Shown in pieces: positions 8,068-31,355 of a stretch of 64,000 nt of DNA. Position 1 is the stretch's first letter, and each line of letters starts with the position of its first letter. Source of the DNA: Patescibacteria group bacterium (lineage in GTDB: Bacteria > Patescibacteriota > Microgenomatia > UBA8517); assembly GCA_038061225.1 (NCBI GenBank), contig JBBTZT010000003.1, positions 257,515-321,514 on the forward strand, written 5' to 3'. The translations under genes and the position numbers were made by a program. Under the pieces are notes generated by a model. That model worked only from the letters and a program-made list of their open reading frames with translations, searched no databases and was not told the origin of the DNA.

Positions 8068-8114
8068 TACAACTATAGTATTTATATTTATTATTTCTTT
8101 GTCAATAGTTATAT

Positions 8115-11620: not shown

Positions 11621-12110
11621 TATTATCGACTTCGCAGAAGCGAGAAACGACTTATTAAAAAAATCAAAGACTGACTGGGTTTTATTTTTGGATAGTGACG
11701 AGAAAATCGATAGTTACTATTTGAAACGCAAAAACTACTTTCTAGGTCAATATGTAGGAACAGACAAGATAATCAGACTTGTCAAAAAAGGAACAGGAAA
11801 ATTTGCTCGTGCAGTTCATGAGATTTGGATTCCTAATGAAAAACACAAAATTGGAATTATCAAAGAAAAAATAATTCATAATACTGCCGATAATTTAAGA
11901 GACTATATGAAAAAAATGAATTATTATAGTGATTTACATGCAAAAGAAAATTTAAAAGAAGGAAAAAGATCCACGCTATATAAAATTATATTTTTTCCAA
12001 TTGCAAAGTTTTTTGTTAGCTTAATAAAATCAAAACACATTGTTTTTAGTATAATGCAATCATTGCATTCATATCTTTCATGGACAAAATTATATTTTTT
12101 ACAGCACTAG
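11589..12110 (+). CDS. short glycosyltransferase family 2-like protein
   Basis: WVLFLDSDEKID (DxD-type motif); 173 aa; may be N-terminally truncated. Confidence 0.4.
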   Translation: MLSTFTLNKPNIIDFAEARNDLLKKSKTDWVLFLDSDEKIDSYYLKRKNYFLGQYVGTDKIIRLVKKGTGKFARAVHEIWIPNEKHKIGIIKEKIIHNTADNLRDYMKKMNYYSDLHAKENLKEGKRSTLYKIIFFPIAKFFVSLIKSKHIVFSIMQSLHSYLSWTKLYFLQH

Positions 12111-13123
12111 TATTATTTCCATTTGGACAGCTTATAAAAATTGGAATTTTTAATCTGTTTGACGCAGTTATTTTATTGCTTGCCATAATTACTTTTTTTA
12201 AAAAACCAAAATACCCAGAATGGTATAGATATTTTATTTATTTTATTTTAGCTTGTGTTTTTGGTTTAATTCTTAATTATTCACTATTAACTCTTAATTC
12301 AGTTTTGTATCTTATTCGTTTAGTTTCATATTCGTTTGTTGCAGTATATATTTCAAATTATTTCAGAAATCTTAAATCTTTAATCCTATATCTTATATCT
12401 ATTGCCTTCGCCTCAGCGATTTTTGGATGGGTGCAGTACATATTTTGGCCTGATTTAACTTCATTAAAATATTTAGGTTGGGATGACCACCTTCTTCGCA
12501 TGGTGGGAACATTTTTAGACCCCACTTATTTGGGACTAATTCTTGTACTAGGTGTTGTTCTTGTAGCTCAACTTAATCTTAAACTTATACTTTATTTTCT
12601 ACTCTCAAGTTTAGCATTTACTTATTCAAGATCTTCGTATTTAACAGTTAGTTTGTTTTTAATTTACAAAAAGAAATTTTTACCACTAATTATTTTTATA
12701 TTAATAATATTACTTTTACCAAAAAATATTGGAGAAGGTACAAATTTAACAAGAACCGTAAGTGGAAATAATAAATTAATAAATTATCAAGAAACTTGGC
12801 AAATTTTTAAAAAATCTCCTCTACTTGGAGTTGGATTTAACAATATCTGCAAAGCGCGTCAGAAGTATTTAGGTGATATGAATATTGATTCACATTCTTG
12901 TAGTGGATCTGATTCATCAATTTTATTTATTCTTGCAACAACTGGAATTGTTGGTCTAATATTATTTTTGAATTTTGTTCTACATGCGCCCAAATTATTA
13001 ATTCTTCACTATTCATTCATAATTGTGTTGATTCATAGTCTTTTTGCAAATAGCCTTTTCTATCCTCAGATTATGTTTTGGATGTTTGCACTTTTAGGAT
13101 TAGGGAGTAAAAGTAACAGTTAA
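12080..13123 (+). CDS. O-antigen ligase/polymerase-like membrane protein (Wzy_C family)
   Basis: Polytopic, with an AFTYSRSSYL loop motif characteristic of O-antigen ligase-like proteins. Confidence 0.55.
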   Translation: MDKIIFFTALVLFPFGQLIKIGIFNLFDAVILLLAIITFFKKPKYPEWYRYFIYFILACVFGLILNYSLLTLNSVLYLIRLVSYSFVAVYISNYFRNLKSLILYLISIAFASAIFGWVQYIFWPDLTSLKYLGWDDHLLRMVGTFLDPTYLGLILVLGVVLVAQLNLKLILYFLLSSLAFTYSRSSYLTVSLFLIYKKKFLPLIIFILIILLLPKNIGEGTNLTRTVSGNNKLINYQETWQIFKKSPLLGVGFNNICKARQKYLGDMNIDSHSCSGSDSSILFILATTGIVGLILFLNFVLHAPKLLILHYSFIIVLIHSLFANSLFYPQIMFWMFALLGLGSKSNS

Positions 13124-13813
13124 AGAAGTTGCTGTTTCATTTTTAGCAGGATCTGTTGCAACAATGTCAAATTTATTTTCTCCCTCAGATAATGTTGTAG
13201 CAAAGGAAAAAGAACCATCATCTTTAGTTGAAACAACTCTTCCATTTATTGTTAAATCTACTTTTTCATTGACTGTTCCCTTTATAGATAATTGTCTTTG
13301 GCCACTGCCAAAAAATTCTGCAGCGTCTGCTGGCGAACTTATTTCAAGAATTGGCTCTTCATTATCAAATACTATTTTATATGTTTTTGTTTGTACACTT
13401 TCATTATTTGAAGAGTCAATAGCTTTAGCATCAATTGAATTTTCACCATCATTTAAATTGAATATAAAACTAAATCGTCCATCACTGTTTGCTACTACTT
13501 CATCTGAATGGTTATTTGACCTAATAACAATTATCGCTCCATCTTCAGAAGTTCCTTCGATTTTAATACTTTCACTATTTGTAAATTCTGGAATTTGATC
13601 AAATTGAGGAGGAGCTGGGGGAGTAATATCGTTTATTTCCACAGGTTTGTCAGATTTTGCAACATCTCCAATAAATCCTGCAAATTTAACTAAAGTAGGT
13701 AAGCCAAAGAAAATAAGAAAAATTAGAGCTAGGATTGATAAAATAATATACCAATATGCTTTTTTAATATTTTTTCTTTCCTCAACCAATGCCAATCTTG
13801 AATATCTTTTCAT
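13100..13813 (-). CDS. membrane-anchored protein with tandem bacterial Ig-like domains
   Basis: N-terminal TM (YWYIILSILALIFLIFFGL) followed by two repeated beta-rich segments (DGRFSF..., DGSFSF...). Confidence 0.45.
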   Translation of the reverse strand: MKRYSRLALVEERKNIKKAYWYIILSILALIFLIFFGLPTLVKFAGFIGDVAKSDKPVEINDITPPAPPQFDQIPEFTNSESIKIEGTSEDGAIIVIRSNNHSDEVVANSDGRFSFIFNLNDGENSIDAKAIDSSNNESVQTKTYKIVFDNEEPILEISSPADAAEFFGSGQRQLSIKGTVNEKVDLTINGRVVSTKDDGSFSFATTLSEGENKFDIVATDPAKNETATSLTVTFTP

Positions 13814-17395: not shown

Positions 17396-17510
17396 AAAGA
17401 TCATTATTAAATTTAATTCAATCCTATATTTAAATAAAATAAGATGTTAAGATTAGAATTGCGTCTCAGAAGAAATTAAGGATTAGATTGTACTATTTTC
17501 CATAATTTTG

Positions 17511-17581
17511 AGCTGGTGAGTGTAATCGAAACACTGTCGATGGTTTACGATACCACTGCTCTACCACTGAGCTACACCAGC
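17511..17581 (-). tRNA. tRNA-Thr (anticodon CGU)
   Basis: The reverse complement reads GCTGGTGTAGCTCAGTGGTAGAGCAGTGGTATCGTAAACCATCGACAGTGTTTCGATTACACTCACCAGC. Anticodon loop ATCGTAA; T-loop TTCGATT. Confidence 0.85.
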
Positions 17582-18553: not shown

Positions 18554-19585
18554 ATGTCAAACGTAATAAAATGCAAGAATTGTGGAACTGAAATAGATGT
18601 TGGAGAGCAATTGGCTCATGATATTAAAGAATCTGTTGTTCTTGAGGAAAGAAAAAAAGCACAAGAAGAAGTAGATATTGTACGACGAAAGTTCAATACT
18701 GATATGGGCAAGCTTCTTGACGAAATTAAAACTTTGCGTGAGAAAGATCAAATGAGAGATTTGGAAATGAAGAAAAAACTTCTAGAAAGTGAGGAAACAA
18801 TTAAAAATGATTTAAAAATTAAACTTGAAGATGAACATAGATTAAAAGATTTGGAAAATTATAAGAAAATGCAAGATGTTTTGAAAGCTAATGAAGAATT
18901 AAAAAGAAAATTAGAACAAGGATCACAACAAACACAAGGTGAAGTATTAGAACTAACTATAGAGAAAAAATTACGTCAGGATTATCCACAAGATGAAATA
19001 AAAGAAGTTAAAAAGGGAGTAAAAGGAGCTGATGTTATCCAAATTGTTATTGATAAAAAAGGGCAAAAATGTGGAAGCTTACTTTGGGAATCAAAAAATG
19101 CTAAGTGGAGTGAAACATGGATAACAAAACTTAAAGAAGATCAAAGACAGGCCAAGGCAGACCTAGCTATACTTGTCTCAGTTGATTTGCCAGAAGACAT
19201 TAAAGAAAAAGGAATTGGTTATAAAAACGGTATTTGGATATGTGGTGCAACTAATTTTAATCAACTGGCAATGTCTTTAAGATTTAATTTAGTTAATATT
19301 TACTATGAAAAACAAAACGCTGTAGGAGTAGATGAGAAAATGAAAGTACTATATGAGTATTTAACAGGAAATGAATTTAAACATAGAGTAGAGGGAATTG
19401 TGGAAGCTTTTGGAACACTTCAGGACGACATCGAAAGAGAAAAAAGGTGGTTTAGTGCAAAATGGGCAAGACAAGAAAAAGAAATTAGAAAAGTAATTGA
19501 TCATACACATGGAATGTATGGTGATCTTCAAGGTGTTACAGGTAGGGCACTTCCTGAAATAAAATCATTGGAATTAGAAGAATAA
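18554..19585 (+). CDS. DUF2130-like protein: N-terminal CxxC, long coiled coil, C-terminal restriction-endonuclease-like (PD-(D/E)XK-like) domain
   Basis: CKNCGTEI at the N-terminus; an E/K-rich heptad region about 100 aa long; C-terminal GADVIQIV...LLWESKNAKWS (D...ExK-like). Assigned to DUF2130 from memory of the family architecture. Confidence 0.45.
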   Translation: MSNVIKCKNCGTEIDVGEQLAHDIKESVVLEERKKAQEEVDIVRRKFNTDMGKLLDEIKTLREKDQMRDLEMKKKLLESEETIKNDLKIKLEDEHRLKDLENYKKMQDVLKANEELKRKLEQGSQQTQGEVLELTIEKKLRQDYPQDEIKEVKKGVKGADVIQIVIDKKGQKCGSLLWESKNAKWSETWITKLKEDQRQAKADLAILVSVDLPEDIKEKGIGYKNGIWICGATNFNQLAMSLRFNLVNIYYEKQNAVGVDEKMKVLYEYLTGNEFKHRVEGIVEAFGTLQDDIEREKRWFSAKWARQEKEIRKVIDHTHGMYGDLQGVTGRALPEIKSLELEE

Positions 19586-19627
19586 ACAACCTCTTGACTT
19601 CGGTTTTGATTGGGGTTAAATTAAATT

Positions 19628-20624
19628 ATGACAACTTCTAAAATTAAAATTCAAAATAATACTTTCAAAGAAGTGATGATTTACCAGACTCCAGACAAGA
19701 GTGTAAAAGTCGAGATTTATTTAAAGGATGAAAATTTATGGCTAACTCAGATTAGAATAGCTGAATTGTTTGGCGTTGAAAGAAGTGTTGTCACAAAGCA
19801 TTTAAAGAATATTTTTTATGAACGAGAGTTAGATTTAAAAAGCAATGTGCAAAAAATGCACATTGCTAAGTCTGATAAACCAGTTAAATACTATAATCTT
19901 AATGTAATTATTGCTGTTGGGTATAGAATCAACTCAATTAAGGCCACAAAATTTCGTATTTGGGCTACTCAAGTTTTAAAGGAATACATAGGACGATGAA
20001 AGATTAAAAGATCCTGATCAAATATTTGGTAAGGATTACTTTGAAGAGCAGCTCGCGAGAATCAGAAATATCCGTTCAAGCGAGAGAAGGATGTATCAAA
20101 AGATTACTGATATCTATGCAGAATGCAGTGCCGACTATGATCCAAATAGTGATATGACCAAAGACTTTTTTGCTACAGTTCAGAATAAACTGCATTTTGC
20201 TATTACTGGTCAAACCGCCGCAGAAATTATAGCTAAGAGAATTGGTAATAAAAAGTTAAATATGGGATTAACAAATTGGAAAAATGGACCAAAAGGCAAA
20301 ATTAGAGAAACTGATGTGGTAATTGCAAAGAATTATTTAAATGAAATAGAGCTGGATAAATTAAACAGAATTGTAACTGTTTACTTAGATTATGCAGATA
20401 TGATGGCAAAAGATAGGATTGTTATATATATGGAAGATTGGATCAAGAAACTGGATGCTTTTCTTAAATTTAGTGAGAAGGACATACTTTCAGATAATGG
20501 AAAAGTAAGTTATGAAGTTGCAGAACAATTGGCATTGGGAGAATATAAAAAGTTTAGAATTAAACAAGACAAAAATTATATCTCAGATTTTGATAGAGAA
20601 GTTAAAAAACTTTTAAAAAAATAG
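19628..20624 (+). pseudogene. rhuM: rhuM-family (virulence RhuM) gene disrupted by a frameshifting deletion
   Basis: ORF 19628-19999 carries the RhuM N-terminal part (...QIRIAELFGVERSVVTKHLKNIF...). ORF 20091-20624 carries the C-terminal part (YQKITDIYA...). The +1-frame translation of the gap (DDERLKDPDQIFGKDYFEEQLARIRNIRSSERR) is also RhuM. About 14 nt encoding IKGFVL appear to be missing at about 19990. Confidence 0.75.
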
Positions 20625-21064
20625 CAAAAACTAGAACTGGGATTCGAAAACTTGTTCTGTCTTATAACTCCTAACTTTAAGAATTTGAAGTGTTGGGTCA
20701 GTAACTTTATAGTCCGAGTTTTCTGCAACAAACAACCCGATTCCAATGTGCGGAATATAACCCAAATCTTTTCTGAAAAATGGAGCCAATATACCAGTAT
20801 AAAGCTTATCGTGAAGGGCAATCACAATGATCCCAAGATTTATCTAATCCTAGTAAATGAATTTTAAAAGACCTCTCATCTTTAACTTAATTATCGGTTT
20901 ATGTAAGTTTCTACTAATTTAGCCTTGAAGTTTCCTAATTCCTCATAATAGGTCACTTTTACCCCTTATTTACCTTCTTTTAACTATTGTTAACTAAGCA
21001 TTTTAGCTGTACAATTATGCATAATAGGAATTATCTAAAAGTAATACTTTTTTGACGACCAAAA

Positions 21065-21259
21065 ATGCCAAAAGACGATAAAAGGTTGCCGGAACTATTA
21101 ACCATTGCGCAGGTGGCGAAAATTCTTAATGTCCACCCGACTACGCTTAGGCGGTGGGATAAGAAAGGAAAGTTAAAAGCCATTCGTGTAGGCACGAGAC
21201 GCGGTGTTGGCGAAAGACGCTATCACCGAGAGGATATTATAAAGTTAATAACAAAGTAA
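21065..21259 (+). CDS. excisionase-family HTH DNA-binding protein (Xis/AlpA-like)
   Basis: LLTIAQVAKILNVHPTTLRRWDKKGKLKAIRVGTRRGVGERRYHREDI matches the excisionase-family HTH consensus. Confidence 0.75.
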   Translation: MPKDDKRLPELLTIAQVAKILNVHPTTLRRWDKKGKLKAIRVGTRRGVGERRYHREDIIKLITK

Positions 21260-21263
21260 ATTT

Positions 21264-24200
21264 ATGTATACGCCGAATAAATCAATTATTGATAATGATA
21301 AAATTAAGCTCTTTACAGAGTTAAAGAACATTCTTAATGACCAGCCTAGCAACTTTGACGTAGCTACCGGCTATTTTAATGTTGGAGGCTTCGAGTTAGT
21401 CGCCCAAGAAATAAAAAATGTCAAAAAGTTCAGATTATTACTTGGAAAGTCACCAAGTGTTGATGACAAGTTGGTACCGGATTTATTCGAGCCAGTAGCG
21501 TTTTATAAGACCAATCTTAAAGAAGACCTCGAAAACGAAGAATTTACCTCTAAAAAGTCTCAGGCGGTCAAAAACCTCATAGCTTTTCTTGAAAAGCAGG
21601 ATGTTGAAGTTAAACTACTGGAAAAACCCTTTCTTCATGGCAAGGCTTACATTTTTAATGATCTGGCTATCATTGGCTCTAGCAACTTCACTTATTCGGG
21701 ACTTGCCGGCAATACAGAATTAAACGCAGTGCTCATTGATCCGCACCCCGTTTATCTTAAAAAAGAATGGTTTGATAAGTTTTGGGAGCAAGCCCGCGAT
21801 TTTAAGCAAGAGCTTATTGAAATCCTCAAAAGCTCAAAGTTAGGTACAAGGGAATACTCGCCTTACGAAGTTTATATTAAAGCGCTCTATGAACTTCAAA
21901 AGAAAGAGCTGGAACCTACGGAAGCCCCCAGAAACGAGCGTTTGCCCGAAAGCGTAGTAGATTTAGCAACATTTCAAGAAGACGCGGTTAATCGTGTGTA
22001 CTCATCGCTCACCAACTATAATGGCGTCTTAGTTGCTGATTCTGTCGGTCTTGGTAAAACATGGATTGCAAAAAAAGTCATTGAGGACTTTGGTTTTTAT
22101 AGAAGACGTAAGTTCTTGGTTATATGTCCAGCTTCACTTCACCGAATGTGGCAAGCTGAGCTTAAAGACTTGGGTGTTTCAGAAAATATCATCCATCAAG
22201 AGTATTTAGGAGGAGAAGGCTTGGACTTTGAAGATTTAGAGAAACGCCATCAGATAAAGTTTGCCGATATCTCCCTCATTGTAATTGACGAGTCTCACAA
22301 CTTCAGAAATCCCATATCTAACCGCTATGAAAACCTTTTTTCACTTATAGAAAAAATTCGCTCATTCGGTAAAACCCCAAAGGTAATTTTAATGACTGCA
22401 ACTCCAATGAATAACACTATTTGGGACTTTTACTTTCAACTTATGCTTATTGGTCAAAACAATAAGCGCATGTTTATTAAGCAAGGAATTTTTGACTTGC
22501 AAAAAGAGTTTAGCAAAGCCCAGAAAGGAAATACCAACCACATTAACGATGTTTTGCAATCAATCTCCATTCGTAGAACACGCCAATATATTAGAGAAAA
22601 CTACAAAGATGCAAAATTCAAAACAGAGACAGGGGAATACAAAAAGATTGAATTCCCAGATAGAAAACTGGAAGAAGTACACTATTCTCTTGATAAAGCC
22701 TATGATGGCCTCTATGCCGAGATTTCGCGCAAGATAGAAGCCGATTTGACTCTTGCTTACTACAAACTCTCCGAGTACAAAGTATCCGAGAAAAAAGATT
22801 TAGTAGAAGTCCACAGAGGACAGGCTTTAGCCGGTATCTTCCAAACAGTTCTTCTAAAAAGATTGGAAAGTTCAGTCGAGGCATTTCGCAAAAGCGTTAA
22901 AAGCCACAAAGAGTTCTTGGGTGAATTTAAAAATGTTGTCCAGAAAGGGAAAATACTACGCAAAAAGTTCTTCCTAAAATACATAAACAGTTTAGATGAA
23001 TCAATCGAGGATATAGATGGCTTGGGAGACTTTGGTAATAGCTTGGAAGATATAGACCTTAAAGACTACGACAAAGAGAAGATGTTTGCTGATATTGACC
23101 AAGATATTAAGGTTTTTTCAACTATTTATGAAGATATAAAAAATATAGATGAAAGCCAAGATGCAAAACTTATTAAATTTAAGGAACATTTACTCAAAAA
23201 TCTTAAAGAGGAAAAAGCCGTTATCTTCTCCTACTACTCCGACACTGTTAAGTATGTCGCTCAAGCATTAGATAAAGATGAGGATTTTAAGAAAAAGTAT
23301 GGTAAGAAGATAGCTTTCATTACTGGTGCTAATTCTTCAAACGAGCGCCAGACTATTATTGAAGATTTCTTAAACGGCAAGACAAATGTTGTTATTTCAA
23401 CCGATATTCTCTCCGAAGGTCAAAACTTGCAACAAGCAAAAACAGTTACTAATTACGATTTACATTGGAATCCGGTGAGAATGATTCAAAGAGCGGGAAG
23501 AATTGACCGTATTGGTACCCCTTTCAAAGAAATTATTATCTATAACTTTTACCCAGAGGATGAGTTGGAATCGCTCCTTGATCTAGTAGAAACCTTACAG
23601 AAAAAAATTATGATGATTAACGATACCATTGGTCTTGACGCCTCTGTTTTAGGTGAGCAGATAAACCCTAAAGTATTTGGTATTATACGGGACTTAAAAA
23701 GTGAGGAAGAAGAAACGAAAGATAAGACAATGGAACTTTTGGAAGCCGAGCAGTTCGGAGGCGGAGAACTTTTCTTCCAGCCCCTGAAAAACTTTGGACT
23801 GGATAAACTCCCCGCGTTTGCCGATGGTTTGCCTCACGGAATACAAAGTGGACTAAAGAAGGGTTATAGAGGCATTTTCTTTTATTTCCAGTATGCAGAG
23901 GAGTATCACTTCTGGTACCTGTACGATTTAATTGACAAAGAATTTAAAACCAACAAGACAGAAATTTTAGACTTTATAGCCTGCAAGCAAGTTGAGCGTC
24001 GAGTTGTCCCCGAAGATTACGATGTTTATTCAGCTCACGATGAAGTAAAAAATCGTATTGCAGAGCTTTTTAATGAAACAAGGTTTGAGGTTGAAATGCG
24101 TACTCCCTCCGGTAAGAAAGAAAAGTTTTTAATTGATATGCGGGATGAATTGGAACATATAAAAACAGAGGTTTTGTTTGAAGAAGATCAAAAGGAGAGA

Positions 24201-24431
24201 ACAAAAATAGAAGAAATTGTTACTAAGATAAACGAGGTCAACTTTACTAAAAAGCGTTTGCAGTATTTAAGGCGTTCTTGGCAGGCTTACAAAAAATCAC
24301 ATCAGAACTGGCGAAAACTGGTTGCAGAGCTTGGTGACTTTTTAGCGGACAAGGTTGAAACACCAACAGAAATTATTGAGGAATTTAATGACAAGAAACT
24401 CAAACTTATTTGCGTTGATTATATTTCATGA
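21264..24431 (+). CDS. fusion of an N-terminal PLD-family (HKD) nuclease domain and an SNF2-family helicase
   Basis: PLD motif FLHGKAYIFNDLAIIGSSNFT (HxK..D..GSxN). SNF2 motifs LVADSVGLGKTW (I), VIDESHNFRN (II), LMTATPMNN (III), ISTDILSEGQNLQ (V) and NPVRMIQRAGRIDRIG (VI). Confidence 0.85.
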   Translation: MYTPNKSIIDNDKIKLFTELKNILNDQPSNFDVATGYFNVGGFELVAQEIKNVKKFRLLLGKSPSVDDKLVPDLFEPVAFYKTNLKEDLENEEFTSKKSQAVKNLIAFLEKQDVEVKLLEKPFLHGKAYIFNDLAIIGSSNFTYSGLAGNTELNAVLIDPHPVYLKKEWFDKFWEQARDFKQELIEILKSSKLGTREYSPYEVYIKALYELQKKELEPTEAPRNERLPESVVDLATFQEDAVNRVYSSLTNYNGVLVADSVGLGKTWIAKKVIEDFGFYRRRKFLVICPASLHRMWQAELKDLGVSENIIHQEYLGGEGLDFEDLEKRHQIKFADISLIVIDESHNFRNPISNRYENLFSLIEKIRSFGKTPKVILMTATPMNNTIWDFYFQLMLIGQNNKRMFIKQGIFDLQKEFSKAQKGNTNHINDVLQSISIRRTRQYIRENYKDAKFKTETGEYKKIEFPDRKLEEVHYSLDKAYDGLYAEISRKIEADLTLAYYKLSEYKVSEKKDLVEVHRGQALAGIFQTVLLKRLESSVEAFRKSVKSHKEFLGEFKNVVQKGKILRKKFFLKYINSLDESIEDIDGLGDFGNSLEDIDLKDYDKEKMFADIDQDIKVFSTIYEDIKNIDESQDAKLIKFKEHLLKNLKEEKAVIFSYYSDTVKYVAQALDKDEDFKKKYGKKIAFITGANSSNERQTIIEDFLNGKTNVVISTDILSEGQNLQQAKTVTNYDLHWNPVRMIQRAGRIDRIGTPFKEIIIYNFYPEDELESLLDLVETLQKKIMMINDTIGLDASVLGEQINPKVFGIIRDLKSEEEETKDKTMELLEAEQFGGGELFFQPLKNFGLDKLPAFADGLPHGIQSGLKKGYRGIFFYFQYAEEYHFWYLYDLIDKEFKTNKTEILDFIACKQVERRVVPEDYDVYSAHDEVKNRIAELFNETRFEVEMRTPSGKKEKFLIDMRDELEHIKTEVLFEEDQKERTKIEEIVTKINEVNFTKKRLQYLRRSWQAYKKSHQNWRKLVAELGDFLADKVETPTEIIEEFNDKKLKLICVDYIS

Positions 24432-24434
24432 GTT

Positions 24435-27400
24435 ATGGGAACAAATATAGACTTAGACGAATTTTTGCCAACAATGGATGCACCGGACAAGGTGTATCAA
24501 CTTTTCGAATCTCTTGGTTTTAAGGTACTCGATTCTCACCTCAAGACAAACCCGTCAGTTTATAACTTACCGGTCAAAGAAGCCGCATTAGTTGAGAAGA
24601 TTTATGCAGTCTCAAATTATGACCGCCGTTTTCAGATTCTTTTATTTAAACTCAAAGAGGAAAACAAAGAAGCAATCCGTACAATACCGGAGAAAATTTT
24701 ACGCGAGGTAGACTTCCCTTTCATTATCTTTACCCCAGATTTTAAGACTTACACTTTTACTCTTGTTGAAAAAGTCCGTGAGGGACCCGGAGAGTTCAAA
24801 CGCAAACTCACAAAACTTGTAGTTGATAGCAGTCAGCCCTATCACACGGACAAAGAAATACTAGGAAGCCTTGCGCTATCTGTTGATACCAAAAACCCCG
24901 TTGAGGTTTATAAAATGTTTCAAAGCGCTTTTAGCGTTGAGAAAGTCACTAAGAAATTCTTTACCGAATATCGGGAAGTTTTTGAAAGATTAGTAGGAGA
25001 AGTTACTAAGCAGAATAAGCACCTGAAATTTACGCTTTTTTCCAGAGATGCTTCTGTAGAAAACTTTGTCAAAATACTTTTAGGTCGTTTAATGTTTCTC
25101 TACTTTATACAAAAGAGGGGCTGGCTTAACTGCTTTGATGGTTGGGGTAGCGGAGATAAAAAGTTTCTCTATAATAAATTTCAAGAGGCAAAGAAAGAAA
25201 AGAAAAACTATTTTAAGGATTACCTCGAACCGCTTTTCTTTGACACTCTCAACAATCCCCGCCGCGATAAGCCAGATCAAGCAACACAGTTTGGCGGTAG
25301 AATCCCTTTCCTAAACGGAGGACTATTTGAACCAGAGTACGACTATCAAGATGTAAGAAATCACATACTTTTAGAAAACTCCACCTTTGATGATGTTTTC
25401 TCGGTTTTTGAGAAATATAACTTTACTGTTAAAGAGGATGAGCCGCTTGAAAAAGAAGTAGCCATTGACCCTGAAATGTTGGGTAAGGTTTTTGAAAATC
25501 TCTTGGAGGAAAACTTACGTAAAGGCAAGGGCACGTATTACACCCCTCGAGAAATCGTCCACTACATGTGCCATGAAAGCCTTATAAACTATCTGGCTTC
25601 CGAAGTTAGCCTAGATCAAGATGTGATAAGGAATTTCTTGGATCGTGAGCAGTCCCTAGAAAAGAAGGAAACTTTAAGTTCTGCTATAAGAGAGAAAGCA
25701 AAGGAAATAGACGAAAAATTAGCTGATATTAAGGTTTTAGACCCTGCCTGCGGTTCTGGCGCTTTCTTGGTTGGTATGCTCCACGAAGTTATAAATGCCC
25801 GCCTAAGTCTTAATCGGGAGCTTGGGCGCAGTCTCTCGGAGTATGAAGTTAAAAAAGCAACAATTCAAAATAATATCTATGGTGTAGATATTGACCCCGG
25901 AGCTTCTGAAATTGCCAAACTTCGTTTATGGTTGACACTTGTTGTTGACCACAATCTCTCCGAAATAGAACCGCTCCCTAATCTTGACTATAAAATTATG
26001 GTCGGTAATTCACTACTCGATGAATTTATGGGCGTAAAACTCTTTAATCCCGAGAACGCAAAAGCTCAAGCAAATGGTAAGAAAATGATTAGTCTTTTTG
26101 ACGAAGATTCACAAGTTTCACTCTTTGAAAATGATGATAAAAAAACAAGTGTCCTAAAAGCCTTGCAAGGGCTACATGCTTTATATTTCAAAGAGTCTGA
26201 CCCCGAAAAGAAGAAGCAAATTAGAACTCAAATAGACAAGATTGAGTTTGATCTTATCGAGGCAACTGTTAATGATGAAGTATCACAACTGGAAAGAAAA
26301 ACTAAAGGAATTGTTGAACCGTATTTGTCTCATGGTATAGGAATTCCAGCGAAAGAAGCGGAGAGAATTTCAAAACTAAGTTCTCAACAAGGACAGATTT
26401 TAGAAACTTTTAATGAGATAAAGAAAAGTAATGTTAAACCATTTTTCTTGTTTCAACTCCATTTCTCCGATGTTTTTGAAAAGAAAGGCGGGTTTGATAT
26501 TGTTATCGCAAACCCACCTTATATGAAAGAGAGAGATAATAAAAAGGTTTTTGAAATAGTCAATAATTCTAGTTTTGGTAAAAAGTATCATCAAGGGAAA
26601 ATGGATTACTGGTATTATTTCTTGCATAAAGCTATTGATATCACAAAAGATAACGGGTTCATCTCCTATATAACGTCTCGGTACTGGATAAATAGTTATG
26701 GTGCAAAAAAACTTATTGAAAGAGTTAATAAAGAGTTATCTTTTGTAAACTTCGTTGATATTGGTAAGTTGAAGGTATTTGATGAAGTAGCTGGCTACCA
26801 TATGATTGCTGTTTATAAAAAGACAGTAGATATTGATCTGTTTACTTATAAAAAACTTCAAAACGAAATTAGTGATATAAGTAAAAGTTCTAATACTGAA
26901 AACCTAGAAATAAAAACATTATCAAAGAAGGAAATATTTACTGATAATGACGAGATTATTTTGGAAACCGATGGTTTAAAATATGATAATGTTGTTTTAT
27001 TAGGTTCAATCGCAGATACCTCGGTTGGAGTTCAAGAATCCCCTGACAAAATTAATAGTAAGCTCCTTCTAAGTGCAAAGCGAACAGATATATCTGTTGG
27101 TGATGGTGTTTTTGTTTTATCGCAAAAAGAATTAGATAACCTACGGCTAAAAGAGATTGGCCGACTGCCAATAATTAAAAAATATTTAGACCCTAATGAT
27201 GTGTACCGTTATCGAGTTAGTTGGAAAAGTAAGTATCTCATTTATTCTGACAATAAAATTAAGGAGGACATTAAAAGTAACAAGGAATACATTAGTATCA
27301 AGAATCATTTAGACAAATTTAGAGAATTTATTTCCTCTTCAAACAAGCCTTACGGGTTACATAGATCACGCGACATAAAGTATTTTATAGAACCCAAGAT

Positions 27401-27827
27401 TATATTTAAAAATATGTTTATCATGCCCGATTTTACCTACGATGATAAAGGATACTTTTTTGGATTTTCTTTTTCTTCAATAATTCAAAAAGATAAAACT
27501 TTTGACTTGAAATACATTCTAGGTATTTTAAATTCAAAAGTTGCATTTAATTGGTTCCAAAAGAACGGAAAAAGAAGGGGTGCTGGGTTTGATATTGGTG
27601 TTGAAAAACTAAGGCTTTTTCCGATCAAGAAAATTACGCTCCAAGAACAAAAACCAATTATCGAAATTGTCGACAAACTTCTAGATATCACAAAAGATGG
27701 TGATTATTTACAAAACCCCACAAGGCAAACTCAAGTTAAAGACTACGAAAAGCAAATTGACCAGTTAGTTTATAAACTCTATGGCCTAACGCCGGAGGAA
27801 ATTTTAGTTGTGGAGGATCAAAAATGA
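24435..27827 (+). CDS. large gamma-class N6-adenine DNA methyltransferase with a C-terminal TRD-like region (type IIG/Eco57I-like, PglX/DrmMI-like)
   Basis: Motif I VLDPACGSGAFLVGM followed by motif IV VIANPPYMKE (gamma order). N-terminal helical region with ILLGRLMFLYFIQKRGWL. C-terminal YKLYGLTPEEILVVE, typical of the type IIG/PglX family. 1130 aa. Confidence 0.85.
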   Translation: MGTNIDLDEFLPTMDAPDKVYQLFESLGFKVLDSHLKTNPSVYNLPVKEAALVEKIYAVSNYDRRFQILLFKLKEENKEAIRTIPEKILREVDFPFIIFTPDFKTYTFTLVEKVREGPGEFKRKLTKLVVDSSQPYHTDKEILGSLALSVDTKNPVEVYKMFQSAFSVEKVTKKFFTEYREVFERLVGEVTKQNKHLKFTLFSRDASVENFVKILLGRLMFLYFIQKRGWLNCFDGWGSGDKKFLYNKFQEAKKEKKNYFKDYLEPLFFDTLNNPRRDKPDQATQFGGRIPFLNGGLFEPEYDYQDVRNHILLENSTFDDVFSVFEKYNFTVKEDEPLEKEVAIDPEMLGKVFENLLEENLRKGKGTYYTPREIVHYMCHESLINYLASEVSLDQDVIRNFLDREQSLEKKETLSSAIREKAKEIDEKLADIKVLDPACGSGAFLVGMLHEVINARLSLNRELGRSLSEYEVKKATIQNNIYGVDIDPGASEIAKLRLWLTLVVDHNLSEIEPLPNLDYKIMVGNSLLDEFMGVKLFNPENAKAQANGKKMISLFDEDSQVSLFENDDKKTSVLKALQGLHALYFKESDPEKKKQIRTQIDKIEFDLIEATVNDEVSQLERKTKGIVEPYLSHGIGIPAKEAERISKLSSQQGQILETFNEIKKSNVKPFFLFQLHFSDVFEKKGGFDIVIANPPYMKERDNKKVFEIVNNSSFGKKYHQGKMDYWYYFLHKAIDITKDNGFISYITSRYWINSYGAKKLIERVNKELSFVNFVDIGKLKVFDEVAGYHMIAVYKKTVDIDLFTYKKLQNEISDISKSSNTENLEIKTLSKKEIFTDNDEIILETDGLKYDNVVLLGSIADTSVGVQESPDKINSKLLLSAKRTDISVGDGVFVLSQKELDNLRLKEIGRLPIIKKYLDPNDVYRYRVSWKSKYLIYSDNKIKEDIKSNKEYISIKNHLDKFREFISSSNKPYGLHRSRDIKYFIEPKIIFKNMFIMPDFTYDDKGYFFGFSFSSIIQKDKTFDLKYILGILNSKVAFNWFQKNGKRRGAGFDIGVEKLRLFPIKKITLQEQKPIIEIVDKLLDITKDGDYLQNPTRQTQVKDYEKQIDQLVYKLYGLTPEEILVVEDQK

Positions 27828-28855
27828 AAGCAGCAGAAAAACCAAAATATGTTCAAGAAGCACGGAAGTTACTAACTTCAATTGACATTAACCATTTGAT
27901 TTCAAACCCTAATGACCTCAGGGAAATAGACAAAATTAATCGTCTAGTAGCTATTTTTACTAACTTTTCTTCCAATGATGGTCAAGAATTGAAAAGACTC
28001 TTTCAAGAATTTCAAGAGACAGGAAGACGTAGTACTAGTTCGGGAACTATCAAAAATAGAGCCGTAGATGTAATCCAATTTATTGGCCAGAAGATTGAAG
28101 AAATGGATATTTATGTTATAGAACCTGATGAGAAACCACTATTAGAGACGCTGGAAAAATTAAGAAAAATTCAAAAACTAATTCAGGAAGGTTTAGCTCG
28201 GAGTGATGAAAAAACACAAATTATACGGGAGGCTCAAGAAAAATCTAAGTTGTTTAAGGACGATATCTACAAAAGGAAAGCGGAAAAGCTTTCAAAACAG
28301 ACCGTTTGGTCAAAGCAGAGTCATGATGGTTTCGTGGCCGCAGATGAATATGGCCAATTAACTCCTTGGATAGAATTGCTTGAAGATTATTTGGGAGAAG
28401 AAAAGCTCTTAATAAGAGAAAAGGTTATTGAAGATACAACCCCGTATGAAGGAAGAAAATTTCTGAGGTCTATCTTAGAGAAGGCTAACAATGAAGTGGT
28501 TGTGGTTGATAATTTTCTTTCCCACGAGATTTTGGCAATTATTGAACCATATGTATTAAAGGGGGTAGGCTTTAGGTTACTGACACGACAGGCGCACAAT
28601 AGTAAATTTAGGAGTTTTACAGCTGATTATAAAGTCTTTAGACTTCAGCACCAAAATAAAATAGCCGCCAAGGAAAACAAAAAATGCCATGACCGCTTTG
28701 TGATGGTTGATGGTCATATCATATATCATTTCGGAGCCAGCTTAGTTGAATTGGGAAATACCTTATCTGTGGCTCATTTAATTGAAGATCAAAAAGAGAA
28801 AGATAAACTGTTATCTAAATTTACCGATTGGTGGGATACGGGAAAGGACGTTTAA
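27824..28855 (+). CDS. hypothetical protein with a C-terminal degenerate PLD-like (HxRxxxxD...GAS) domain
   Basis: C-terminal HDRFVMVDGHIIYHFGASLVELGN aligns with HxKx4Dx6GSxN but has K->R. Preceded by VVVVDNFLSHEILAIIE. The N-terminal 200 aa are helical and unknown. Its start overlaps the MTase stop by 4 nt. Confidence 0.45.
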   Translation: MKAAEKPKYVQEARKLLTSIDINHLISNPNDLREIDKINRLVAIFTNFSSNDGQELKRLFQEFQETGRRSTSSGTIKNRAVDVIQFIGQKIEEMDIYVIEPDEKPLLETLEKLRKIQKLIQEGLARSDEKTQIIREAQEKSKLFKDDIYKRKAEKLSKQTVWSKQSHDGFVAADEYGQLTPWIELLEDYLGEEKLLIREKVIEDTTPYEGRKFLRSILEKANNEVVVVDNFLSHEILAIIEPYVLKGVGFRLLTRQAHNSKFRSFTADYKVFRLQHQNKIAAKENKKCHDRFVMVDGHIIYHFGASLVELGNTLSVAHLIEDQKEKDKLLSKFTDWWDTGKDV

Positions 28856-28867
28856 GTTTTAATAATC

Positions 28868-30313
28868 ATGGATATTACAGATATCACTGGCTATACATTA
28901 AAAAATCTTAGCAAAATTAACATTGTTTTAGGGAAAAATGGTTGCGGTAAAAGCACACTGTTACGATCAGTTGAACAAGGTTTATCTTCGCAATCGCAGT
29001 CGTATGGAAAAACAAAATACATAACACCGGAAAGAGGAGGATCTCTTATTTATGAAGCTGGTATTGAACAGAGTTTAACAACCGATATAAATTGGCTTTC
29101 AGGTCAAAGGAGAAAAAATCAAGCTGTTGGTTTTAGACAACAAAGCGTAGCTCAGTATCGCAGACTTGAAACTTTGGTATTAAGAGAAATAGAAAAGGAA
29201 AAACGACAACAAAACGATTACACCTTCGACATTTATGTTAATAAAATCAACTCTTTGCTTGACAATATTGAAATAAAAAGACATGATATGACTTTCAAAA
29301 TATACCATAGAGGAACAATCAATGAATTAGGGGCAGAAGTAATCAGCAGTGGCGAAAGCGAACTGATTTCCTTGGGTATTGAATGTTTAATTTTTGGCAA
29401 AGAGTGTATTCCGGACAAAGAAAATATTTTATTTTTAGATGAGCCAGACGTACATTTACACCCAGATTTACAGGTTCGTTTAATGAATTTCCTAGAAGGT
29501 TTGGTTTCGGATAGTAACTTCAAAGTTTTAATTGCCACACACAGTACTGCTATTTTGGGAGCGTTGGAAACTTACACTGATACTCACTTGGCGTTTATGT
29601 CCTTTGAGCAGAAAGAGCTAAACTTTAGAGAAATTTCAGCAGTTTATAGAAAAGTTCTGCCCGTTTTTGGAGCACACCCCTTGTCTAATATTTTCAACGA
29701 AGCACCAATCTTACTTGTTGAAGGTGAGGATGACGAAAGAATTTGGCAACAAGCTGTCCGATCTTCTAATGGCACTATTAAATTATATCCCTGTTCTGTA
29801 GATAGTGTGAGTAATATAAACGATTTTGAACAGGAAGCAAAAGAGATTATTCAATCTGTTTATGACAAAGCCAAAGGTTATTCATTGAGAGATAAGGACA
29901 ATAACACTGAAGAAATCAATGATCTGCCGCCGATAATCAGAATGAGACTAGCATGCAGAAACTCGGAAAACCTTTTGCTTACGGACGAGGTACTTGGAGC
30001 ACTTAATATAACATGGGATCAACTTAAAGAGCGTATTGATATTTGGTTGAGTACCAATACACAACATCCTCACTTTTCGGTTATGAATGGGTTTAAGGAA
30101 GGCGGATACGATAGAAGAAACTTTGATATTAAAGAAGTGCGTAACGATTTAATGGGTGTTGTTGGAAGCGCAAAACCTTGGGAAGTTGTAGTGGGTCAAT
30201 CAATTTCAAGTCTGACTTGGGATGACAGTTCTAATTTTGAGGAAGATGGAAAAATTCTATCCTTTCTTGGACGAAAGATTACAGAAAATCTTATCCCTAA
30301 ATCGAGTAGATGA
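28868..30313 (+). CDS. OLD-family ATP-dependent endonuclease (AAA_21/ABC-type ATPase + TOPRIM)
   Basis: Walker A GKNGCGKSTLL; signature-like ISSGESEL; Walker B ILFLDEPDVHLHPD; TOPRIM-like ILLVEGEDDERIW with downstream acidic residues (VDSVSN). Confidence 0.75.
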   Translation: MDITDITGYTLKNLSKINIVLGKNGCGKSTLLRSVEQGLSSQSQSYGKTKYITPERGGSLIYEAGIEQSLTTDINWLSGQRRKNQAVGFRQQSVAQYRRLETLVLREIEKEKRQQNDYTFDIYVNKINSLLDNIEIKRHDMTFKIYHRGTINELGAEVISSGESELISLGIECLIFGKECIPDKENILFLDEPDVHLHPDLQVRLMNFLEGLVSDSNFKVLIATHSTAILGALETYTDTHLAFMSFEQKELNFREISAVYRKVLPVFGAHPLSNIFNEAPILLVEGEDDERIWQQAVRSSNGTIKLYPCSVDSVSNINDFEQEAKEIIQSVYDKAKGYSLRDKDNNTEEINDLPPIIRMRLACRNSENLLLTDEVLGALNITWDQLKERIDIWLSTNTQHPHFSVMNGFKEGGYDRRNFDIKEVRNDLMGVVGSAKPWEVVVGQSISSLTWDDSSNFEEDGKILSFLGRKITENLIPKSSR

Positions 30314-30358
30314 CATAAGGTTAAAGTAAAAGGGTTAAGGTTATTAACAAATTAGTAA

Positions 30359-31006
30359 ATGAATAACTTATTTATTTTCCAGTTACCTATAGATTTAGCC
30401 TCATCACTTACTGGAGGTGCTATTGGGTTAATATTAGCTTTTGGACTTTACCTTTTTGATAAGTCAATTAACCCCGACCTAGAAATACAGATAGCCGATC
30501 CGTCAAAACTATCATTGGCTCAAGGTGAATTTAAGTCTCTAAATTTAAAAATAATTAACAAAAAGAGAGACGGCATTTTACGATTTTTGAATAGATCAGC
30601 AACTCAAGTTAAGGTATTTCTTTACTTTTCAGACTTTTCTTCAAGAGTGCTTATGAATACAGTGATAGCTAGGTGGAACAATAGTCGAGAACCGCTAACT
30701 CCGGATTATAAAAATGTTGATCTTGGACTTGCTCTTACACACCCTAGAGAGGTTCTCGTACCTGGTGATGAAAATGAAATCTCTGTGGCTATTCGGAAAA
30801 AAGATAATAGATACTGCTTCCCTTTCAGCAACGAAAGCTACATATATCAAAGTAAAGACTTTGAGGTTCCTGGTTGGAAAATTGAAGATGATAAATTTGT
30901 CGTTACTGTGCGCATACAGTCAGCTGAAGTTGATAAAATGGGTGGCGTGTTTATTGTGCTAAATAAAAGTACATTAGAGCAGTTTAAGATCGAAAAAATA
31001 GGATAA
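30359..31006 (+). CDS. hypothetical membrane-anchored protein (single N-terminal TM)
   Basis: 215 aa; TM at about 17-33 (LTGGAIGLILAFGLYLF); no motif. Lies 45 bp downstream of the OLD-family gene. Confidence 0.4.
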   Translation: MNNLFIFQLPIDLASSLTGGAIGLILAFGLYLFDKSINPDLEIQIADPSKLSLAQGEFKSLNLKIINKKRDGILRFLNRSATQVKVFLYFSDFSSRVLMNTVIARWNNSREPLTPDYKNVDLGLALTHPREVLVPGDENEISVAIRKKDNRYCFPFSNESYIYQSKDFEVPGWKIEDDKFVVTVRIQSAEVDKMGGVFIVLNKSTLEQFKIEKIG

Positions 31007-31041: not shown

Positions 31042-31302
31042 ATGAAACGAATTGATGCATACGCACTCGCTAGATTTCTTATATTAGTTGCCTTGCTTAT
31101 TGGTGTCATCTATACGGGTTCTAAAATTGACACTCTTAGCAAGCGACTAGAAAGAATTGAGGCAAAACTTGGTGGTCCCGAAAAAATCGGTTGTAATGAG
31201 AAGGATTCTATCGAGAAAGTTCGCCAGTCTGTTGTCCGGATTGTAGGCGGAGAGGGCGAAGGTTCTGGTTTATCACCGTATGGAGCAGTGGACCGGATTT
31301 GA
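31042..31302 (+). CDS. small membrane protein; possible N-terminal remnant of a trypsin-like (HtrA-type) protease
   Basis: TM helix, then ...VRQSVVRIVGGEGEGSGL, resembling the start of an S1C protease domain. The ORF's last ~22 nt (including its stop codon) overlap the tRNA-Gly 3' end. Confidence 0.3.
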   Translation: MKRIDAYALARFLILVALLIGVIYTGSKIDTLSKRLERIEAKLGGPEKIGCNEKDSIEKVRQSVVRIVGGEGEGSGLSPYGAVDRI

Positions 31303-31355
31303 ACCGGCGACCTTCTGCTTGGGAAGCAGACATTCTACCGCTGAACTACCACTGC
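31281..31355 (-). tRNA. tRNA-Gly (anticodon CCC), CCA encoded
   Basis: The reverse complement reads GCAGTGGTAGTTCAGCGGTAGAATGTCTGCTTCCCAAGCAGAAGGTCGCCGGTTCAAATCCGGTCCACTGCTCCA. Confidence 0.85.

Follow-up and report, generated by a model that had tools for sequence, protein, structure and literature searches.

A 343-aa protein with an altered PLD motif is encoded directly behind an HKD-SNF2 helicase gene and an N6-adenine methyltransferase (MTase) gene in the window, the stretch of 64,000 nucleotides of Patescibacteria DNA that we analysed. In its motif the usual Lys is replaced by Arg, which raises the question whether the protein is a nuclease and how it relates to the helicase and the MTase. 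A sequence-only reading had offered two answers, a DrmC-like accessory nuclease or an inactive paralogue that pairs with the HKD domain of the SNF2 protein. Our analysis suggests that it is an accessory defence protein and probably a nuclease. We give an even chance to the fuller explanation, in which it is a plug-in accessory effector of a restriction-modification-like island, namely a PLD nuclease that is translationally coupled and carried on a mobile cassette.

The gene, its operon and known defence systems

The 343-aa open reading frame and its translation are real, and so is the translational coupling to the MTase, as the sequence-only reading had claimed. The ATG of the target gene (27824-27826) overlaps the TGA stop codon of the MTase gene (27825-27827) as ATGA. 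It is preceded by a GGAGGA Shine-Dalgarno sequence (27812-27817), and the next gene starts 12 nt past the target stop codon. A protein from a Patescibacteria MAG (P0001) is 100% identical to the target and is annotated as 'hypothetical'. All three modules of the protein are under purifying selection (dN/dS 0.06-0.22; 0.08-0.13 for the PLD module). Since the N module combines a dS of 0.6 to >2 with a dN/dS of 0.1-0.2, selection acts on it at the protein level, and we rejected the idea that its DNA conservation is a pure recombination artefact. Pfam, NCBIfam and PHROGs hold no usable family for the target or the N module. The sole match, Pfam PLDc_2 (PF13091), reached 17.7 bits (E=0.0034) and stayed below the gathering threshold of 27 bits, which counts against our main reading.

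Table 1. Features of the island and of the target gene in the window.
Feature	Position	Strand	Basis
tRNA-Thr, left edge of the higher-GC island with the operon	17510..17581	-	
N-terminal HKD (PLD) nuclease fused to SNF2 helicase	21264..24431	+	H124-G-K126...GSSN intact
Type IIG-like N6-adenine MTase with TaqI_C specificity domain, 1130 aa	24435..27827	+	NPPY at aa 693
MTase gene 3' end (protein tail ...QLVYKLYGLTPEEILVVEDQK), DNA-conserved with the cassette; holds the Shine-Dalgarno sequence	27738..27823	+	blastn
Target gene (343-aa protein; N handle, helical M module, HxR PLD-fold domain)	27824..28855	+	ORF and translation
N module (aa 1-100), four-helix bundle 'handle', 60-80% identical on proteins with other effector domains	27824..28123	+	
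M module (aa 101-200), helical linker; P0020 and P0083 have it too, with another C-terminus	28124..28423	+	
C-terminal PLD-fold domain, HxR subfamily (aa about 205-343)	28436..28852	+	
First beta strand of the PLD fold, VVVVDNFL, with near-invariant D229	28493..28516	+	strand aa 224-231 in model
Signature motif H289-x-R291-x4-D296-x7-G304-x-S306-x4-G311	28688..28756	+	invariant in orthologues and family alignment
OLD-family-like ABC ATPase with TOPRIM-like C-terminus	28868..30313	+	Walker A GKNGCGKS, 'LLVEGEDDE'
215-aa single-pass membrane protein with beta-rich domain	30359..31006	+	sequence inspection
tRNA-Gly, right edge of the island	31281..31355	-	

The island is bounded by two tRNA genes (Table 1), and beyond the tRNA-Gly gene lie housekeeping genes for PolX, LemA and an M48 peptidase. 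The SNF2 protein matches PLDc_2 (4.5e-11), SNF2-rel_dom and Helicase_C in Pfam and C3a139 'HKD+Snf2' in PADLOC (1.2e-55); it is predicted to be the host system's own nuclease-motor. The MTase matches Eco57I (3.8e-30), TaqI_C and MmeI_Mtase in Pfam and REase_MTase_IIG in PADLOC (1e-106). Judged by these genes, the host operon is a restriction-modification-like minimal HKD-SNF2 + MTase system. The ABC ATPase, with matches to AAA_15 and AAA_21 in Pfam and to AriAB, ATPase-Toprim, Old and GajA in PADLOC, is probably a neighbouring, separate embedded defence gene. Defence genes are often embedded in methylation-based systems (bioRxiv 10.1101/2024.01.29.577857).

The operon shares an MtsD-like HKD+SNF2 protein and an N6-adenine MTase with the MANTIS/Gao_RL/type-2 BREX-related systems. 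The MANTIS components are the DUF499 ATPase MtsA, the DUF3780 protein MtsB, the MTase MtsC and the PLD-SNF2 protein MtsD (PMC12839542; bioRxiv 10.64898/2026.09.23.753747). Since Pfam found neither DUF499 nor DUF3780 in the island, whose ATPase belongs to the ABC/OLD type (AAA_15/AAA_21), we rejected a full MANTIS/Gao_RL identity. Genes 3 and 4 of the operon are instead the HxR-PLD protein and the OLD-like ABC ATPase, and no MANTIS component described so far corresponds to the target. We likewise rejected an identity as Hma/type-1 BR, in which the MTase is of the m5C type, the helicase carries a PD-(D/E)XK REase at its C-terminus and DUF499 is present. In the operon, the helicase has an N-terminal HKD domain, the MTase is of the N6-adenine type (NPPY) and DUF499 is missing.

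DISARM was the other system to be weighed, with the target as a DrmC orthologue and the operon as a reduced class 1 DISARM. DrmC is, like the target, a small PLD-fold accessory protein beside an SNF2 helicase and an adenine MTase, and the SNF2 protein and the MTase of the window score on the DrmD and DrmMI models, respectively. However, the DrmD score is 179 against an NCBIfam cut-off of 610, and the NCBIfam matches of the MTase include no DISARM methyltransferase model. The target carries HxR and not HKD and matches no DrmC model, neither in PADLOC at E<=0.01 nor in NCBIfam. Pfam and PADLOC searches over the genes at 18554-31006 and the larger ORFs to 36238 found no DrmA and no DrmB (DUF1998). 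With DrmA and DrmB absent and no similarity to DrmC, DISARM membership is refuted, and we consider a DrmC orthologue almost certainly the wrong description. The role of an accessory nuclease proposed in the sequence-only reading is still plausible, but the likeness to DrmC did not survive, as the PADLOC matches of the target are limited to PDC-S05 and a weak one to MkoC.

The PLD-fold domain and its HxR motif

A Foldseek search with the AF2 model of the target, which is based on a shallow alignment of 19 sequences and has a mean pLDDT of 79, retrieved PLD folds with a probability of 1.0, among them Nuc, Zucchini, NucT and PLDs. This bears out the PLD fold suspected from the sequence. The model has the alpha/beta fold with the motif-bearing strand-loop that defines the superfamily, and within the segment VVVVDNFLSHE, which had been read as a typical upstream strand, aa 224-231 are indeed predicted to form one. 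Its Asp229 is conserved in 99% of the domain family.

The canonical catalytic motif is HxKx4Dx6G(S/T)xN, while the target has HxRx4Dx7GxS (H289-D-R291-F-V-M-V-D296, seven residues, G304-A-S306-L...G311). The motif had been described as HxKx4Dx6GSxN with a single Lys-to-Arg change; the H, R and D positions are present, but the spacer is seven residues and not six, and GxS takes the place of GSxN. His289, Asp290, Arg291, Phe292, Asp296, Gly304, Ser306, Leu307 and Gly311 are invariant in 18 full-length orthologues and one distant relative. Among the best 149 of at least 811 domain-family clusters at 50% identity, the motif positions H, R, D, G, S and G vary little or not at all, HxRx4D is kept in 148, and none has Lys at the position of the Arg (0/149). 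Asn312 of 'ELGN' is not conserved in the domain family. In terms of sequence, the HxR PLD domain is a large distinct branch of the PLD fold with Arg replacing the usual Lys.

The closest catalytic relatives are the single-HKD nucleases Nuc, NucT and Zucchini. The profile of the HxR family finds Nuc at E=1e-4, with HDRFIIID aligned onto HDKVIIVD of Nuc, and 25 of 109 family members match Pfam PLDc_2. Like these nucleases, the target has one motif per chain with His and Asp at the same motif positions, and a single PLD motif per chain implies a dimeric composite site. It differs from them in the Arg that replaces the phosphate-binding Lys, in a spacer longer by one residue, in GxS for GSxN and in two extra N-terminal helical modules.

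The same Lys-to-Arg change occurs in another defence-associated HKD domain, the 'HRD' variant of BrxL-HKD from type 1 BREX, which was proposed to be an active auxiliary endoDNase (Rakesh & Krishnan, NAR 2026, PMC12839542). The architectures differ. In BrxL the HRD domain is part of a fusion with the AAA+ protein, and in the target the domain sits on a four-helix handle. Pfam and NCBIfam give no BrxL family match for the target. A tblastn search of a plasmid collection with the HxR domain returned six weak matches, all of them RhuM/ORF6N proteins and none annotated as BrxL.

The domain may, however, be a pseudo-enzyme, whose His/Arg/Ser pocket binds a phosphate-bearing ligand (DNA at an end or along the backbone, a nucleotide, a signalling molecule). 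The protein would then sense for, regulate or scaffold the neighbouring restriction machinery. Replacing Lys by Arg in the HKD motif is the usual way to abolish catalysis in canonical PLDs (PLD1 K898R). The altered GSxN of the target, not conserved in the family either, counts against our main reading, and so does the presence, in the top structural matches, of PLD folds that are non-catalytic, namely FAM83A/B (DUF1669), the C-domain of TrmB/TrmBL2 and MIT_C of MITD1, to which the sequence similarity is marginal (E 0.004-0.025). MITD1 and TrmB resemble the target in joining a helical or DNA-binding N-terminus to a PLD-like C-terminus, and some members of the HxR family show a TrmB-like architecture, with a winged-helix-like N-terminus before the PLD-like domain, as judged by eye from the sequences. 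Four of 109 family members match Pfam MIT_C, and HMMER weakly aligned 'IHDREIRF' of MITD1, with its HDR tripeptide, onto the family motif (E=0.015). Therefore, retention of His and Arg is no proof of catalysis.

On the other hand, FAM83, TrmB and MITD1 are eukaryotic or archaeal regulators and not defence-island genes. A conserved His/Asp/Ser set is not a known feature of these non-catalytic folds, nor is a conserved nucleophilic His one of FAM83 and TrmB, whereas H, D, G and S are invariant here. The target also has no other candidate effector domain if its PLD domain merely binds, and its sister proteins with the same N-terminus bear bona fide enzymatic effectors (TIR, HNH and LmuA-like). 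We regard a pseudo-enzyme as less probable than the active nuclease.

Weak similarity to MIT_C and the phospholipases within the PLD superfamily also bring a lipid substrate to mind. Like classical PLDs and MITD1, the domain would then act on membrane phospholipid by binding or hydrolysing it, and would cause membrane damage in abortive infection, possibly together with the 215-aa membrane protein. The latter has no match in the family libraries, and its blastp homologues follow target orthologues at two further loci (L008_1797-2465, 3.6e-15; L006_12617-13312, 3e-9). It recurs in three of six orthologue loci but is absent from the other three (L001, L042 and L046), and we found no membrane-targeting feature in the target. 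The best catalytic structural matches belong to the Nuc/NucT/Zucchini nuclease clade. Moreover, the HxR domain elsewhere lies C-terminal to DNA-binding N-termini (ORF6N, RhuM, Rha and winged-helix-like). These observations make a lipid-directed effector unlikely and are in line with the nuclease reading.

Proteins of this kind fall into the PADLOC candidate PDC-S05, which comprises ORF6N/RhuM-type proteins in RM, BREX and DISARM loci and is a heterogeneous, unvalidated bin. Only the C-terminal domain of the target matches its models (PDLC04869, 8.5e-21; PDLC04879, 9e-19). The target and the PDC-S05 proteins are both embedded in methylation-based defence loci; however, by Pfam the target lacks the ORF6N/RhuM N-terminus and has the four-helix handle of the CPR and the M module instead. 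Literature searches on ORF6N/RhuM-PLD proteins gave nothing specific.

A shared N-terminal handle and the probable mobility of the cassette

Residues 1-200 are helical in the model, as had been expected from the sequence, but they can be assigned further than was then thought. Residues 1-100 form a handle that is common to other effectors, and residues 101-200 are a separate helical module. The handle was found in Patescibacteria (CPR) only, where it also precedes a TIR domain (Pfam, 6e-10), an HNH domain of the CBASS SAVED-HNH type (PADLOC, 7e-28) and an LmuA-like nuclease domain (3e-6). A literature search for such a handle domain found nothing specific.

Genes with the N handle are co-directional with, and located at the 3' end of, restriction operons of three classes. 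These are HKD-SNF2+MTase operons (the window, L004, L006, L028, L033, L039, L042 and L046), Type I operons (L009, L029 and L052) and Type III operons (L022, L070 and L073). The ABC ATPase adjoins an N-handle gene only in the window, L022 and L075, and small PD-(D/E)XK-like proteins are encoded in L042 and L046.

This distribution bears on the pairing proposed in the sequence-only reading, in which the HxR domain heterodimerises with the N-terminal HKD domain of the SNF2 protein (21264-24431) and forms or regulates a composite site. One PLD half-site is present on each protein of the same operon, and HKD-SNF2+MTase genes lie upstream of the target orthologue in four of six distinct contexts. 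However, we observed no co-variation. Target orthologues are 69-80% identical across loci, whereas the SNF2 proteins of these loci share only 28-33% and the adjacent SNF2 and MTase proteins together 28-37%. At L001, a 70%-identical orthologue is found in a locus without SNF2 or MTase, and at L004, L028, L033 and L039 the N handle with non-PLD effectors fills the operon slot of the target. The HxR domain is spread over hundreds of unrelated contexts, most of them without HKD-SNF2. An hhalign comparison of the HxR family with the HKD domain of the SNF2 protein gave a non-significant probability of 2.9%; the two domains are remotely alike and, by this comparison, are not close paralogues. The related HKD-helicase MtsD is a homodimer that forms a single PLD active site (bioRxiv 10.64898/2026.09.23.753747). 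We consider the pairing very unlikely.

The conservation of the target (69-80%) next to that of SNF2 and MTase (28-37%) points to a mobile plug-in effector and not to a co-evolved partner of the SNF2 HKD domain. At the DNA level, the homology detected by blastn starts at 27738 within the MTase gene (82% for L006 and 73% for L004), although the MTases themselves are only about 27-30% identical, and it is limited by the MTase tail on one side and the target stop codon on the other. Some N-module genes (L025, L027, L046 and L033) lack a complete MTase gene immediately before them but are still preceded by the same remnant of the MTase tail. The MTase 3' tail is likely the recombination junction. 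Two of the six distinct orthologue contexts, L001 and L008, showed no SNF2 or MTase, which counts against our main reading; L008 offers little upstream sequence to inspect, and the MTase tail is absent there. We also found no conserved obligate partner gene or trigger across the orthologue loci, and this counts against it as well.

A candidate back-up nuclease

We propose that two copies of the PLD domain dimerise into one active site, by analogy with Nuc, BfiI and MtsD. In this site His289 would be the nucleophile, and Arg291 would bind the phosphate in place of the usual Lys. The predicted reaction is the cleavage of phosphodiester bonds, with DNA as the most likely substrate, and the handle would have a binding or sensing role. 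Translational coupling would ensure co-expression with the N6-adenine MTase, and the target may serve as a second, back-up nuclease. HKD nucleases act as effectors, including back-up effectors, in BREX-related systems (PMC12839542). The cassette would have recombined into divergent host systems and would not be a co-evolved subunit of any.

A broader proposal is more tentative, and we hold it to be possible but not probable. Here the four-helix N module defines an undescribed Patescibacteria-specific family of plug-in effectors that couples swappable killing domains (HxR-PLD, TIR, HNH and LmuA-like) to HKD-SNF2+MTase, Type I and Type III systems, with cassettes exchanged by recombination in the MTase 3' tail and with HxR as an active nuclease that uses Arg in the place of a Lys on which every characterised member of the superfamily depends.

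PLD accessory nucleases and embedded defence genes are familiar ideas, and our results put forward a candidate without establishing how it works. An inactive HxR domain would make the protein a case of a pseudo-nuclease that acts as a sensor in defence. If the domain is active, the rule of the indispensable HKD lysine would need revising, and the PLD superfamily would have a new catalytic solution. A function would then be assigned to at least 811 sequence clusters that now carry the labels 'hypothetical', 'RhuM' or 'ORF6N', and perhaps also to the HRD domains found in about a third of BrxL proteins. The MTase-tail footprint suggests a route by which such cassettes move. To the genome-reduced CPR bacteria, one handle combined with exchangeable TIR, HNH, REase and PLD domains seems to offer an economical means of adding a second-line effector to their restriction systems.

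The HxR protein and its operon

The 343-codon ORF of the HxR protein (HxR being the Arg variant of the PLD HKD motif) is real and was correctly spotted in the sequence-only reading. The coupling to the MTase gene proposed in that reading holds: the start codon and the TGA stop of the preceding 1130-aa ORF share the sequence ATGA, with a GGAGGA box 6 nt before the start, and 12 nt separate its stop codon from the start of the next ORF. An identical protein, annotated solely as 'hypothetical protein', was found in a Patescibacteria MAG (P0001). The N handle (aa 1-100), the M module (aa 101-200) and the PLD-fold domain (aa ~205-343) are all under purifying selection (dN/dS 0.06-0.22, dS 0.6 to above 2). 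The operon lies in an island bordered by two tRNA genes, with housekeeping genes beyond. Its GC content is mostly 0.35-0.39 from ~21 kb to the right edge and ~0.30 in the flanks and the leftmost part.

Features of the island and its borders (positions in the window)
Feature	Position	Strand	Evidence or remark
tRNA-Thr	17510-17581		island border
RhuM-family gene split into two ORFs	19628-19999; 20091-20624	+	Virulence_RhuM profile positions 11-56 in one ORF, 94-249 in the other
HKD-SNF2 helicase-nuclease	21264-24431		PADLOC C3a139 'HKD+Snf2', 1.2e-55; H124-G-K126...GSSN intact
Type IIG-like N6-adenine MTase	24435-27827		Eco57I, MmeI_Mtase, TaqI_C; NPPY
HxR protein	27824-28855	+	ORF, HxR motif
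OLD-like ABC ATPase	28868-30313	+	TOPRIM-like 'VEGEDDE' motif
215-aa single-pass membrane protein	30359-31006	+	no family matches
86-aa ORF	31042-31302		overlaps tRNA-Gly; probably spurious
tRNA-Gly	31281-31355		island border

The SNF2 and MTase pair resembles the MtsC/MtsD half of the MANTIS / Gao_RL / type-2 BREX-related systems, but the operon lacks their DUF499 ATPase and DUF3780. An Hma identity was rejected (Hma has an m5C MTase, a C-terminal REase and DUF499). DISARM was rejected as well, since neither DrmA nor DrmB is present and the HxR protein has no DrmC match, and the earlier suggestion of a DrmC-like nuclease is not supported.

The ABC ATPase (481 aa, Walker A GKNGCGKS, TOPRIM-like 'LLVEGEDDERIW' motif) resembles a single-gene defence module of the OLD/GajA/AriA kind that has been inserted between the HxR protein and the membrane protein. 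In L022 a related ATPase lies before the N-handle gene, in L075 after it. Proteins of 215-231 aa that combine a single N-terminal transmembrane helix with a beta-rich domain, and for which no family match was found, are encoded in the window, in L008 (1797-2465) and in L006 (12617-13312); they lie downstream of HxR protein orthologues in three of six loci, and the Type I operon of L009 contains similar ones (221 and 231 aa). The split RhuM gene just upstream of the operon is likely a pseudogene; in other organisms the HxR PLD domain carries RhuM/ORF6N N-termini.

The PLD fold and the HxR clade

An alignment of 18 orthologues plus a distant relative gave an AlphaFold2 model with a mean pLDDT of 79 and values of 84-93 across most of the C-terminal domain. 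Foldseek matched this model to TrmBL2, MITD1, Nuc, Zucchini, FAM83B, NucT and classical PLDs, each with probability 1.0, which bears out the PLD fold put forward earlier. Judged from sequence, the evidence is weaker for the protein alone (Pfam PLDc_2 17.7 bits against a threshold of 27; PADLOC MkoC 7e-4) and clear at the family level. At E<=1e-3, aa 185-343 retrieved 811 related representative clusters in an exhaustive phmmer search. The family profile matches the endonuclease Nuc (1byr, E=1e-4), with HdRfiiiD aligned on HDKVIIVD, and 25 of 109 members match PLDc_2. Source names are 'hypothetical', 'RhuM family' or 'ORF6N domain-containing', and we found no solved structure of any member. The unvalidated PADLOC candidate PDC-S05 already bins this domain (E=8.5e-21).

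The C-terminal motif reads H289-D-R291-FVMV-D296-GHIIYHF-G304-A-S306-L-VEL-G311. The Lys to Arg change had been taken as the sole departure from the PLD signature HxKx4Dx6GSxN; it is real, but the spacer also has 7 residues instead of 6, and 'GxS' takes the place of 'GSxN'. The H/R/D positions are kept in homologues. Since HxRx4D is present in 148 of the 149 best representatives, Lys occupies the Arg position in none of them, and D229, H289, R291, D296, G304, S306, G311 and W337 are 90-100% conserved, HxR is a fixed signature of a large clade and not the decay of a single copy.

Outside this lineage the domain follows ORF6N, RhuM, Rha, AbiTii or DUF2321 domains, or N-termini which by eye look winged-helix-like; the commonest N-terminus is an unannotated helical region of ~100 aa. 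The MIT_C domain of human MITD1 (PDB 4a5z/2ymb) is non-catalytic, membrane-binding and PLD-like, and HMMER aligned its 'IHDREIRF...IGRGL' onto HDRFIIID...GASL of the family alignment (A3) at E=0.015. Along with the 4 of 109 members that match MIT_C, the alignment is a hint that MIT_C and the bacterial HxR clade may be evolutionarily linked.

A shared N handle and a probable mobile cassette

The most informative result is the modularity of the N-terminal half. The homologue search returned 18 full-length orthologues (69-86% identity) and about 60 further proteins of 430-520 aa which share only the first 100 residues (60-80% identity). Among 85 matches, N-B-C2 was the main architecture (45), followed by the N-M-PLD type of our protein (19), N-TIR-C2 (7), N-Mrr-C2 (5), N-HNH-C2 (4), PLD only (P0084 and P0085), M-containing mosaics (N-M-B-Cend and M-B-Cend, 2 in all) and a single N-B-Cend. 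By their matches to TIR_2 (6e-10), HNH of the CBASS SAVED-HNH type (7e-28) and an LmuA-like nuclease (3e-6), the domains inserted behind the handle are recognised defence effectors. The N module is a high-confidence up-down four-helix bundle in both predicted models, it resembles generic FAT/HPt-type bundles only, and no Pfam family matched it. The first 200 residues had been called helical and unassignable; they still lack a Pfam family for the N module, but they are modular and the handle recurs on other effectors.

In species-representative genomes and metagenomes, all N-handle loci found came from Patescibacteria/CPR MAGs or from MAGs labelled as uncultured. Several in L024-L032 are labelled 'uncultured Gammaproteobacteria' or 'Pseudomonadales' (binchicken co-assemblies); one is the same contig as a locus of typical CPR-like gene content, so bins may have been mislabelled or chimeric. 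In L036 (9895-10959), after the closest metagenomic N module (84% identity), there is a gap and then an HNH+C2 ORF starting ~650 nt later; the arrangement resembles an N-HNH-C2 gene that has been frameshifted or rearranged.

We surveyed 58 loci beyond the window. N-handle genes stand at the 3' end of operons in the same orientation, whether HKD-SNF2+MTase (L004, L006, L028, L033, L039, L042, L046 and fragments), Type I (L009, L029, L052) or Type III (L022, L070, L073); other defence settings include GmrSD, Schlafen and a reverse transcriptase. The N-M-PLD type follows HKD-SNF2+MTase in four of six distinct contexts. At L008 there is no MTase tail and little sequence upstream, and at L001 a deaminase and a 322-aa protein precede the orthologue.

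In the L001 region (7632-13201) the orthologue (P0014, 70% identity) is flanked by recombinase genes, and neither SNF2 nor MTase occurs nearby. Upstream are a BtrH_N/YobF_C protein, the cytidine-deaminase-like protein and the 322-aa protein, whose 'GVGPATVWYLL' motif is like that of HhH glycosylases; the set may form another kind of module based on DNA modification. Directly downstream of the orthologues in L046 (10330-10950) and L042 (7803-8345) we observed small PD-(D/E)XK nuclease-like proteins with a common N-terminus (MRES..L..YLK.H.Y.P.RI...SPDFE), the latter fused to an HsdS fragment.

Across the four HKD-SNF2+MTase loci with the HxR protein, it is 69-80% identical, SNF2 28-33% and the MTase 28-37%. 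Between the window and L006, DNA homology (82%) begins at 27738, so that the last 86 nt before the HxR start, at the MTase 3' end, are included, and ends exactly at the HxR stop codon; with L004 it covers 27738-28181 only, from the MTase tail through the N module to about residue 19 of M. The conserved tail of ~60-86 nt (27738-27823 in the window) encodes the MTase C-terminus ...QLVYKLYGLTPEEIxIVE. Tail DNA also precedes N-handle genes that lack an intact MTase gene immediately before them (L025, L027, L046, L033), and is absent from the Type I and Type III contexts. We infer that the tail is a recombination junction or footprint, and it may serve as a handle for swapping 3'-appended effector genes. 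From these comparisons the HxR protein would be a cassette, not a co-evolved subunit.

Predicted activity and role

The best-supported reading, to which we give an even chance, is an accessory nuclease effector dimerising through its single PLD domain. It is based on the fold, the invariant pocket, a slot equal to that of TIR/HNH/REase effectors, and the DNA-binding modules that accompany the domain in other proteins. The protein would be co-translated with the MTase, and two chains would each give H289, R291, D296 and S306 to one pocket. Whether it is an active phosphodiesterase, as predicted, is close to a coin toss.

The main doubt is chemical. In canonical PLDs the Lys to Arg change (K898R) is the textbook inactivating mutation, non-catalytic PLD folds account for several of the top structural matches, and the HDR tripeptide of MITD1 aligns with the family motif. 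The same points favour a pseudo-enzyme that binds and does not cleave; we consider this about half as likely as an active enzyme. A lipid-directed role, or pairing with the HKD domain of SNF2 as the sequence-only reading proposed, takes what these two leave. Pairing is weakened because the protein does not co-vary with SNF2, contexts without SNF2 exist, and the related MtsD has a homodimeric PLD site (bioRxiv 10.64898/2026.09.23.753747).

For a nuclease effector there is one literature precedent of Lys to Arg in a defence HKD domain, the 'HRD' BrxL-HKD variants, whose activity was proposed by the authors and not demonstrated there (PMC12839542); the likeness to our protein is at the motif level. 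Extra defence genes embedded in methylation-based systems are documented (bioRxiv 10.1101/2024.01.29.577857). The HxR protein is a PLD-fold protein from an HxR clade without characterised members; carried on a CPR-specific modular handle, it plugs into restriction operons at their end.
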